A DNA stretch of 64,000 nucleotides from positions 98,912 to 162,911 of IMG/VR virus record IMGVR_UViG_3300037205_000062; one strand, given 5' to 3'. Within the stretch, counting starts at the first letter, position 1, and each line of letters begins with the position of its first letter. The stretch comes from a virus. The notes beneath the pieces are model-generated. The model made no database searches, was not told the DNA's origin, and saw nothing but the letters and a program-made list of their open reading frames with translations. Below are positions 14,958 through 26,627 of this stretch, piece by piece. A program made the position numbers and the translations under genes.

Positions 14958-15343
14958 GGGGATGAAAGGTTTCGATTAATAGTATTGAGACTAAGTAGCA
15001 CGCACTGGATTACTGTTGGCCAGTTAAAACATCAGTAAAAACATTAAATGCTAAATCAGCACTTAAATCACTTGTTAGCAAGAGCTTCCTAAAGCTTGCG
15101 CCTCAAGCTGAACTAGCAGTAGCCTAATTAAGACTACTCCATCAACCAAAAGATGCTCGATATTTTGGAAGATGAACTATGCGAGCAAAAAACCTTAGAT
15201 TAATTGGGGTTTAGAATTCAATTAATATAATTGTATTTAATTTTGTTATTTTTAGAATACAATAAGAATTAAAAAATAAACAAGCGTGTAGAGCTAAATT
15301 GATATGTTATTAAGACCCGTCTTCAATGACGGCATCTCCACCA
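14958..15343 (+). ncRNA. ssrA: tmRNA; tag (A)AKSALKSLVSKSFLKLAPQAELAVA at 15050-15127
   Basis: GGGGATG/CATCTCC-ACCA acceptor with G3:U70, GGTTTCGA 5' motif, TTAAAT-GCT resume context, tag ending LAVA. Confidence 0.92.
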
Positions 15344-24240: not shown

Positions 24241-24578
24241 GTGACTGAATTAAAACGATACTGTTATCGTTAAAGTTTTAAGCAGGTGAAGAATCTGTTT
24301 AAGTTGCCATGAAATCTTAGTAAATAAGGTAGTCAGAAACTTAGATTGGCCAATCGAAGTCTATGATGTAAGCTATTACTTATAGAACATAACGGATAGC
24401 TTTTTGCTGCGACGGCGGCGAGTGACTGAAATAAAATTGAAAAGATGTAATGCTTGGGCGTAGAAAGGAATCGCCCCGATTTAATTTATCTTTAGACGAG
24501 ATAGGCAAATGTCCTATTTACGAAAAGTGCAGGGAAAGCTACCTAGAAAGCTTGACATGATGGAGAGACATCTTTTCA
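24241..24578 (+). ncRNA. One or two unknown structured RNAs
   Basis: Dense hairpins; TGAAAAGATGT/ACATCTTTTCA closes 24438-24578. Confidence 0.5.
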
Positions 24579-24863: not shown

Positions 24864-24926
24864 TTTAGATAATCCTTGTGCCTTAATAACTTATAGAAAA
24901 ATCGGCAACGGCAAGAATTAAAAAAC

Positions 24927-25720: not shown

Positions 25721-25796
25721 GGGGGTGTGGCTCGACAAGCAAGGCACCACGTTTGCAACGTGTTTTATGCAGGAGCGATACCTGTCACCTCCACCA
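25721..25796 (+). tRNA. tRNA-Ala(TGC)
   Basis: G3:U70, ACCA. Confidence 0.9.
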
Positions 25797-25992: not shown

Positions 25993-26031
25993 AAAGATTT
26001 ATTTAGCATTAAAAATTTGTCAACATAAGTT

Positions 26032-26110
26032 GGGATATAGTCCGAAGTAGTCGAGGTACTTTCCTGTCACGAAAGAAATCTAACGGATGCGAGTTCCGTA
26101 TATCCCGCCA
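26032..26110 (+). tRNA. tRNA-Asp(GTC)
   Basis: CTGTCAC loop, G73-CCA. Confidence 0.88.
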
Positions 26111-26122
26111 ATTTAAATATAT

Positions 26123-26199
26123 GGACGTATAACTCAATTAGATAGAGTATCAGCTTGCGAAGCTGAAAGTTGAAAGTGCAAATCTTTCTACGTCCACCA
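26123..26199 (+). tRNA. tRNA-Arg(GCG)
   Basis: TCAGC-TTGCGAA-GCTGA. Confidence 0.88.
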
Positions 26200-26219
26200 A
26201 GGCTTTATTGCCTTTGTTT

Positions 26220-26270
26220 TTCAATTCATAAACAAAATTGAATGGTGGAGGCGGCGGGAAACCGTCGCCC
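26220..26270 (+). ncRNA. Two-hairpin element containing 18 nt antisense to a host-type tmRNA 3' end
   Basis: 26243-26260 is the reverse complement of TTCCCGCCGCCTCCACCA; caged in GGCGGCGG-GAAA-CCGTCGCC. Confidence 0.55.
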
Positions 26271-26286
26271 TTTAAATTTATTTAAT

Positions 26287-26362
26287 GGTATATATCCTCT
26301 ATGTAGTAAGAGCGCGGCCTGTGAAGCCGCCAAAACGAATGCAAGTTTCGTTATATACCCCA
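26287..26362 (+). tRNA. tRNA-His(GTG)
   Basis: G-1:C73, CTGTGAA loop. Confidence 0.9.
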
Positions 26363-26367
26363 ATTTT

Positions 26368-26451
26368 GGCCTCGTGACCTATTTGAGAATAGAACATCAT
26401 ACGGATTTAAACCCCGTGGTTTTGAAGGTGCAAGTCCTTTCGAGGCTACCA
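26368..26451 (+). tRNA. Atypical tRNA-Leu(TAA) without long variable arm
   Basis: TTTAAAC loop on ACGG/CCGT; acceptor identical to Ile(GAT); expanded D region. Confidence 0.6.
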
Positions 26452-26627
26452 TTTTTATTGATTATTTCTAAATAACTTAGAAAATTGGATTGATAAAAAC
26501 AAAATCTATGTTAGAAATTACAAGAAGTTTTGGATTAAAAAGTTCCAATTCAATTCGTAAATGGTGTCAATTATACCAAATAGATTATAAATCTCTTTCT
26601 CCATTTTCTTATAAGAAAAATTTTAAT

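Follow-up and report, generated by a model that had tools for sequence, protein, structure and literature searches.

In Escherichia coli, 3'ETS-leuZ and the internal spacer of metZWV reportedly serve as sponges for small RNAs, as Lalaouna et al. are said to have described in 2015. The element considered here, which lies in a spacer of the tRNA array of a large phage, resembles RNAs of the 3'ETS-leuZ type in that it is a non-tRNA part of a polycistronic tRNA transcript, carries a stable terminal hairpin, and is proposed to pair with a noncoding RNA. It differs in being encoded by a phage and in having tmRNA as its proposed target instead of an Hfq-dependent small RNA, and its release and stability are predicted. 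The match between the element and its proposed target is also perfect over 16–18 nt and runs into the element's own hairpin, which sets it apart from the 3'ETS-leuZ type.

A further comparison comes from AgvB and AsxR, which are reportedly anti-sRNAs encoded by prophages of enterohemorrhagic E. coli (attributed to Tree et al. in 2014). Like the element in its proposed role, these are phage RNAs that neutralize a host noncoding RNA by pairing with it. While AgvB and AsxR hit the seed regions of small RNAs, the element would be directed at a tRNA-like RNA, specifically its aminoacyl-acceptor end, and it comes together with a putative phage-borne replacement for that target. From the comparison of sequences, we propose that the element may pair with the acceptor end of canonical tmRNA.

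Mobile elements that integrate into tmRNA genes are said to carry attP cores taken from the end of the gene, as reportedly set out by Williams in 2002 and in the Islander database. As in such cores, the element is a short exact block of the 3' end of ssrA (the tmRNA gene) on a mobile genome. Unlike them, it comes with neither a recombinase gene nor a second copy in the 163-kb record, it is antisense in a tRNA operon, and a plus-strand RNA hairpin is built on the block.

In vitro, trans-translation can be blocked by antisense oligonucleotides that target tmRNA in its mRNA-like domain (PMC8778911). The element is similar in that it is proposed to pair with mature tmRNA; it differs in being natural instead of synthetic and in addressing the acceptor end instead of the mRNA-like domain. 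The phage also encodes a tmRNA of its own (14958–15343), which, like the tmRNAs of other large phages, is a standard one-piece molecule by the Rfam model. This lineage differs from those phages in its long conserved tag, its fast-changing acceptor and T arms, and the putative antisense module that accompanies the gene. Our literature search found no account of an antisense RNA against tmRNA that is natural or encoded by a phage.

The Phage and Its tRNA Array

The DNA analyzed, here called the window, is the final 64 kb of a 162,911-bp linear IMG/VR virus record with an estimated completeness of 79%, and positions refer to the window unless stated otherwise. A 212,454-bp contig carries a protein identical to one that neighbors the element and is probably the whole genome of the phage, which has a GC content of ~30%. 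The phage is a member of a family of ~200-kb peat phages, and its DNA is present in peat metagenomes. Its genes include those for a ribonucleotide reductase, NAMPT, an NMN adenylyltransferase-like protein, a thymidylate synthase, a GMP reductase, a DnaE-type polymerase, a DnaB helicase, and a terminase. In our judgment, this gene content looks like that of a large virulent phage. A further protein, encoded on the minus strand at genome positions 67632–68819 (L129:10632–11819), is a family 9 glycosyltransferase (Pfam E = 7e-8) whose Atlas neighbors are viral GT9 clusters.

Because the terminase has only ~25% identity to that of any cultured phage, the comparison gives no host, and no close DNA relatives were found among cultured phages. 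A host look-up in the ESM Atlas returned viral clusters only. Shine-Dalgarno motifs are absent upstream of the phage start codons, which hints at a Bacteroidota-like host; the tmRNA of Bacteroides may have a different acceptor stem, a point that counts against the antisense reading set out below.

The tRNA array extends over roughly 24.1–36.9 kb of the window, and all of its genes are on the plus strand. Contigs from peat metatranscriptomes match parts of the array exactly, which suggests that the array is transcribed in nature. None of them covers 26171–26337, where the element lies; such contigs cannot reveal RNA ends, and we give this gap weight neither way. One RNA contig that matches 24261–24475 exactly has a word depth of ~765, far above the other matching RNA contigs. 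This sequence is a structured non-tRNA RNA between a tRNA-Gly gene and the next tRNA gene, and may represent a stable phage RNA of very high abundance. After position 24868, one RNA contig has 25 additional letters (AATTGGTTTAATGTCAGAGGTCAAA) that are absent from the DNA contigs, which may reflect strain variation, an indel, or something that happened at the RNA level.

Some tRNA-like genes of the array were overlooked by ARAGORN and by Rfam at threshold, namely an Asp(GUC)-like gene (26029–26111), a His(GUG) gene (26287–26362), and a Leu(UAA)-like gene (26369–26452). The His and Leu(UAA) homologs are called normally in two related lineages, relatives A and B, and an Asp(GUC) gene is called in relative B.

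The tmRNA-Complementary Block and Its Hairpin

The element lies in an 87-nt spacer (26200–26286), a candidate processed small RNA with a variable 5' part, which does not align with the relatives, and a 3' part that forms a conserved module. Upstream is a tRNA-Arg(GCG) gene (26123–26199; found by ARAGORN, Rfam 67.3 bits), and downstream is the tRNA-His(GUG)-like gene (26287–26362), which folds as a cloverleaf with an encoded G-1:C73 pair and has homologs called tRNA-His in the relatives. Both neighbors are on the plus strand, which gives the spacer the placement of a spacer-derived RNA, between tRNA genes and on the transcribed strand; the element is placed likewise in both relatives.

Within the spacer, the 18-nt block TGGTGGAGGCGGCGGGAA (26243–26260, plus strand) is the exact complement of the canonical tmRNA 3' end. 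A preliminary description of the locus had recognized in this block the reverse complement of a host-type tmRNA 3' end, and that core observation is confirmed. The reverse complement, TTCCCGCCGCCTCCACCA, is composed of ACCA, the acceptor strand CGCCUCC, the T-stem strand CCCGC, and UU, and it is the commonest bacterial tmRNA 3' end. It terminates real tmRNA genes in at least 120 IMG/VR contigs, in most of which it directly follows GGACGCGGGTTCRA, and it is also present in the genomes of 28 species from many phyla (beta-, gamma-, and deltaproteobacteria, Verrucomicrobiota, Nitrospirae, Bacillota, Planctomycetota, and an acidobacterium), with Burkholderiales and Lysobacterales among them. The full-length tmRNAs that were extracted begin with GGGGGCG, as had been anticipated, and the Rfam tmRNA consensus has the 3' end UCCgCCacCUCCACCA. 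The complementarity to tmRNA is exact and far beyond chance. TGGTGGAGGCGGCGGGAA occurs once in the window, for which shuffles give 0.00 expected matches at up to 3 mismatches, and once in the whole 162,911-bp record; no second copy or internal target of at least 11 nt was found in the record or in the examined DNA of the relatives.

Searching with the 18-mer had also been suggested as a route to the host. The search did match tmRNA 3' ends, but it indicated no host, because the 18-mer is present in many phyla and is uninformative in this respect. When a donor bacterium was sought by extending the core into the phage flank, no further identity common to the 28 species was found. In the 28 bacterial loci that share the core and the 5 nt downstream, TTCAA, identity stops at 18 nt on both sides. 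IMG/VR scans with the 3' half of the tRNA-Arg gene, the 3' end of the phage tmRNA, a gapped pattern of the element, and two neighboring proteins revealed no similar element. When IMG/VR and metagenomes were scanned with the 18-mer and a 20-mer, the matches were tmRNA genes, att junctions, and coding sequence rich in Gly and Pro. A 2.6-kb metagenome contig of 52% GC has 28 nt in common with the element that include both hairpin arms (GGGCGACGGTTTCCCGCCGCCTCCACCA; L146:326–353), and around this match there is no tmRNA, no tRNA, and no clear open reading frame.

Eleven of the 18 nt belong to the 5' arm of an 8-bp hairpin, GGCGGCGG-GAAA-CCGUCGCC (26250–26269), with a G:U pair at 26254:26265. The GAAA-capped stem with its G:U pair, first described from the letters, is borne out by folding: the plus-strand hairpin, with the arms GGCGGCGG and CCGTCGCC, has a predicted energy of −17.3 kcal/mol. 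On the minus strand, the hairpin is weaker by 5 kcal/mol (−12.0 kcal/mol) and the G:U pair becomes an A·C mismatch; wobble pairs in the hairpin exist on the plus strand only. The hairpin can be extended by G48-C70 and G47·U71 with A49 bulged, and the fold of the 87-nt spacer has a z-score of −2.6. The heptamer UGGUGGA had been presented as an unpaired toehold. In minimum-energy folds, either G47 and G48 pair with C70 and U71 or the entire heptamer pairs with the U-rich tail; UGGU (~4 nt) is the only part that is reliably unpaired, and it is this shorter toehold that stands.

The module ends with a conserved 3' block, CGCCCUUU (26266–26273, plus strand; CGCCCCUA in relative B; alignments A1 and A2). 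Read directly from the sequences, this block can pair, if wobbles are allowed, with GGGGGCG, the 5' strand of canonical tmRNA. The pairing of CGCCC(U/C)U with GGGGGCG follows from the hairpin's own complementarity and hence is no separate evidence, and the likeness of this arm to the tmRNA 5' end was dropped as an independent argument.

In Rfam searches of the element, the matches to wcaG and frnS were weak and below threshold; the wcaG RNA motif (RF01761) scored 23.3 bits against a gathering value of 42, with E = 0.082 in a 1.2-kb search. The tmRNA model RF00023 gave 8.7 bits on the minus strand of the element against a gathering value of 47, as a local match to the 3' end only. An alanine minihelix on the minus strand was ruled out, as positions 1:72 and 2:71 are A·C mismatches in all lineages and the fold is weaker.

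Conservation in Related Phage Lineages

Relative A was found by homology with a 243-residue protein neighboring the element, which has a 55%-identical counterpart on Logan contigs, and relative B, a third lineage, was found through the AAA-type ATPase of the array. Both come from other assemblies than this phage (L204, L205, L210, and L211 for relative A and L206, L209, and L212 for relative B). The relatives have a common gene order of reductase, tmRNA, sigma factor, and GMP reductase, with a dual-specificity phosphatase and the tRNA array further on. Additional anchor look-ups gave no extra copy of the spacer: L232, L207, and L208 are from nonsyntenic phages, the last two reached via the AAA protein, and L231 stops short of the spacer.

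In relative A (L204), the spacer between tRNA-Arg(ACG) and tRNA-His contains TGGTGGAGGCGGCGGG, which is identical at 16 of 16 positions to 26243–26258. The remaining spacer is unalignable, and the flanking tRNAs are ~65% identical (by eye, alignment A1). The 16-nt conserved block begins and ends exactly at the complements of A76 and C61, respectively, a span that corresponds to ACCA together with the entire 3' strand of the acceptor helix and the T helix stacked on it. Across 15 kb of the array, this phage has 169 exact words of at least 12 nt in common with relative A, so the 16-mer is no outlier by length alone; it is notable by its isolation in a diverged spacer and by its borders. The hairpin of relative A is different, with a 6-bp stem (GGCGGC/GGGU/GCCGCC). 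Ten of the 16 conserved nt are outside this stem, and therefore the sequence has been kept, not merely the pairing.

Relative B (L206) has the element UUGGUGGAGGGCUUUGGGAAACCAAUCGCCCCUAUU. It retains UGGUGGAGG (9 nt, 26243–26251), the GAAA loop, the bulged lower stem, and CGCCCCU, and its upper stem has changed with compensation, from C-G and G·U/G-C to U-A and U-A. Seven of the 16 complementary positions are lost and the hairpin is kept, which is the outcome expected from structure-only selection. The 16-nt complement in relative B, CCAAAGCCCTCCACCA, likewise looks like a tRNA-type 3' end, and in very large phages it is found in that position within tRNA arrays; these matches come from only one lineage and could be due to chance. 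Across the three lineages, the hairpin stem is kept through different 3' arms.

The Phage-Encoded tmRNA

The tmRNA gene of the phage (14958–15343, plus strand; Rfam RF00023, 73.8 bits) encodes a molecule with the 5' end GGGGAUG, the 3' end CAUCUCCACCA, and the terminal sequence GGCAUCUCCACCA. Its complementarity to the element extends over 8 nt and one additional wobble pair, in agreement with the 8–9 nt that had been reported from the sequence. A homologous tmRNA gene is found just after the ribonucleotide reductase gene in all three lineages. A comparison of its co-occurrence with phage ssrA genes and with integrases had been suggested: a tmRNA is present in each lineage, and there is no integrase in the record or in the gene tables of the relatives.

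The three copies (14958–15343, L211:7977–8373, and L212:5400–5785) have a conserved, unusually long tag of 23–26 residues ending in LAVA or VAVAA. ARAGORN fails on the copy of this phage, for which the tag AKSALKSLVSKSFLKLAPQAELAVA was read by eye; for the relatives, ARAGORN gives AKKNALKALVSNTFLKFAPQAELAVA and AKNIMKNLVGMTFLKATRVAVAA. The acceptor and T arms differ among the lineages by compensatory changes (alignment A3), with the acceptor stem being GGGGAUG/CAUCUCC in this phage and GGGCGUG/CACGUCC and GGGCGAA/UUCGUCC in the other lineages. In all three, the complementarity between the phage's own tmRNA and the conserved 5' end of the element is limited to 7–8 nt (by eye).

Co-folding energies ignore tertiary structure and bound proteins, and the canonical tmRNAs used may not be that of the host; read in this way, the spacer of this phage gave −16 to −22 kcal/mol with five canonical tmRNAs, −3.3 kcal/mol with its own tmRNA, and a mean of −1.3 kcal/mol when shuffled. 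The corresponding values are −16 to −17, −9.4, and −2.1 kcal/mol for the spacer of relative A and −9 to −12, −6.0, and −2.7 kcal/mol for that of relative B, with controls of five shuffles per spacer folded with one canonical tmRNA (locus L178). These model values largely restate the complementarity in energy terms. The phage tmRNA is predicted to escape pairing with the element.

A Proposed Antisense RNA to tmRNA

The best reading of the locus, which we hold tentatively and rate at somewhat less than an even chance, is that a processed spacer RNA pairs with the 3' strand of canonical tmRNA. The conserved module opens with an unpaired 5'-UGGU, continues with GGAGGCGGCGGG, which forms the 5' arm of a hairpin capped by a GNRA loop, and closes with CGCCCUU. 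On the transcribed strand it is perfectly complementary to the last 16–18 nt of canonical tmRNA, which take in ACCA, the 3' strand of the acceptor stem with its U70, and the 3' strand of the T stem. In the proposed mechanism, an RNase P cut at tRNA-His together with 3' processing of tRNA-Arg would free an RNA of ~85 nt that is protected by its 3' hairpin. The UGGU of this RNA would pair onto the single-stranded ACCA of the host tmRNA, and pairing would then extend into the acceptor and T stems as the hairpin of the module opens. The freed CGCCCUU arm would take the displaced tmRNA 5' strand, GGGGGCG. Held in this way, the acceptor end would be neither charged by AlaRS nor bound by SmpB and EF-Tu.

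The phage tmRNA, whose acceptor and T arms are rewritten and whose tag (23–26 residues) is specific to the lineage, would escape this pairing and could take over ribosome rescue. The locus would then be one part of a two-part takeover, in which the spacer RNA invades both strands of the acceptor helix and blocks charging and a recoded phage tmRNA that is immune to it replaces that of the host. We regard this complete scheme as possible but doubtful. We infer that the spacer is expressed and processed, that the tmRNA of the host matches it, that the two RNAs bind, and that trans-translation is affected. The preliminary description had put forward a similar inactivation and replacement of host tmRNA. 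In favor of that idea are the exact match, the transcribed strand, the conserved place, and a phage tmRNA that avoids the pairing, but the toehold is shorter than had been thought and relative B has only 9 nt of the match.

Further points count against an antisense role. With 11 of the 18 nt in a stable hairpin, only ~4 nt are reliably free, and the target is itself a stable helix that is normally protein-bound. To our knowledge, a perfect 18-nt match that continues into the RNA's own terminal hairpin is rare among the known trans-acting small RNAs of bacteria. The benefit that a phage would draw from blocking host tmRNA is not evident.

If the antisense reading is true, the host ssrA should end in CCCGCCGCCUCCACCA for this phage and relative A and in ...GCCCUCCACCA or an equivalent for relative B, with no difference beyond CUCCACCA. 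The element would then be the first natural anti-tmRNA RNA, and the phage would be the first virus to exchange a host noncoding RNA for its own version. Phages would in this case replace the translation-quality control of the host instead of just supplementing it, tmRNA would be added to the host RNAs targeted by viral antisense RNAs, and many non-tRNA spacers in phage tRNA arrays would become candidate carriers of small regulatory RNAs. We know of no explanation for the role of tmRNA genes in large phages; a mirror RNA beside an escaping phage tmRNA makes this question testable in vitro with three RNAs and AlaRS. The module would also provide a natural design for inhibiting trans-translation, which is an antibiotic target under study (PMC8778911).

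Structural and DNA-Level Alternatives

A purely structural role for the hairpin, which lies upstream of tRNA-His, has to be taken seriously as a rival, because in relative B the fold persists and half of the match, namely its T-stem part, is gone. The hairpin would be a processing or stability signal or a leaky terminator that arose from an inverted tRNA- or tmRNA-type 3' end, and the match to tmRNA would be functionless today. Consistent with such a role, compensatory changes have maintained the hairpin in three lineages, two of which have a GNRA loop, and it is always located 4–17 nt ahead of tRNA-His. In this phage, it is also the top terminator-like site of the region, with the tail CUUUAAAUUUAUUU, and it resembles the intrinsic terminators of the phage (e.g., at 37262 and 58274), in which a GC stem with a GAAA or GCAA loop is followed by a T-rich tail.

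The terminator look is not a conserved property, however, since the relatives have no U tract past the hairpin flank and tRNA-His begins 4–6 nt on; their tails, CUUUAUGG in relative A and CCUAUUAUGG in relative B, make the hairpin unusable as a terminator there. A terminator placed before tRNA-His without a promoter would also silence tRNA-His. Structure alone does not require the unpaired UGGU, which is invariant in three lineages, or the GGG that is unpaired in the loop of relative A and kept between this phage and relative A, and the borders of the block are exactly those of the tmRNA 3' strand. Weighing these points, we find a solely structural role possible yet on the doubtful side.

Either of two kinds of selection could keep the block exact: RNA pairing with the tmRNA end or use of the DNA as a core matching ssrA. 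As DNA, the block would be either an attP core or an attB-like site at which islands or satellites that target tmRNA could land, and identity to the ssrA end would allow recombination to restore the gene. The 18-nt identity to the ssrA 3' end fits this, and exact conservation is expected for an att core too. Elsewhere, the bare 18-mer without the T-loop marks att-like junctions of other elements (L010/L102, L011, L030, and L072) as well as a marine integrative family, and both near-complete records with such junctions carry tyrosine integrases. A DNA-level role is also conceivable because islands that integrate beside tmRNA are carried as satellites by a jumbo phage (PMC12595487).

An attP core had been the alternative in the preliminary description, and it gained no support from a search for its integrase. 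By Pfam, the 163-kb record, which is 79% complete, has no tyrosine integrase (PF00589), no serine recombinase (PF00239 and PF07508), and no IS110 transposase (PF01548), and no recombinase is listed in the gene tables of the relatives (stretches of ~35–40 kb each); an integrase could still lie in the missing 21% of the genome. The block also lacks the second copy noted above, it sits within a tRNA operon that integration would split, its wobble pairs favor a plus-strand RNA fold, and the gene content appears virulent in our own judgment. Taken together, these features make an attachment core quite unlikely. The reading of the module as an RNA that pairs with tmRNA is favored over a DNA core because there is no recombinase gene, the wobbles are specific to the plus strand, the site is in the middle of a tRNA operon, and an escaping tmRNA is found in every lineage.

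The marine integrative-element family, which includes Tara Oceans contigs, has a junction core of TTCCCGCCGCCTCCACCA followed by a conserved arm, GTTTACACCTACATT...AATTATAAACTCTTAAC (L136, L139, L142, L149, L154, L157, L167, L172, L174, and L175). A retroelement primer-binding site, which would be 18 nt complementary to a tRNA 3' end, was considered separately and ruled out, with no reverse transcriptase (PF00078) in the 163-kb record.

It is very unlikely that the module is a cis-acting sensor of RNA 3' ends, loosely similar to a T-box. An uncharged AlaRS substrate, either tmRNA or tRNA-Ala ending in ...CCUCCACCA, would pair with UGGUGGAGG, open the hairpin, and thereby modulate read-through or processing of tRNA-His and tRNA-Leu. 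The invariant 9-mer does match the 3' ends of acceptor stems with G3:U70, including that of the phage's own tRNA-Ala (CACCUCCACCA at 25796), and the pairing site overlaps the 5' arm of the terminator-like hairpin. However, the element has no specifier, no other T-box feature, and no Rfam match, the hairpin is no terminator in the relatives, and in a folded tRNA or tmRNA the acceptor strand is unavailable for pairing.

Although GGTGGAGGCGGCGG-type words arise in the Gly- and Pro-rich coding sequence of GC-rich contigs, a chance resemblance of a GC-rich hairpin to a tmRNA end is extremely improbable in a genome of ~30% GC, where zero matches are expected even at 3 mismatches and the block is conserved with the same borders in a second lineage, and the readings as chance or a neutral relic are now unlikely.

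Other Genes in the Arrays of the Relatives

The arrays of related phages contain, or lie beside, other genes connected with RNA. A Ro60/TROVE protein is encoded just upstream of the tRNA array in several of them (L209:3602–4933, L210:4097–5425, and L231:3410–4744), with none at the corresponding place in this phage, and its presence suggests a Y-RNA-like partner among the non-tRNA RNAs of the array. The tRNA array of relative B encodes a 245-residue fragment of the catalytic core of alanyl-tRNA synthetase (L206:5683–6420; PF01411, E = 4e-21), which has no counterpart in this phage; the fragment is of interest because AlaRS is the enzyme that charges tmRNA. In a fourth related lineage, the array opens with a tRNA (L231:8060–8133) that is called with the anticodon CUA, which reads amber codons.
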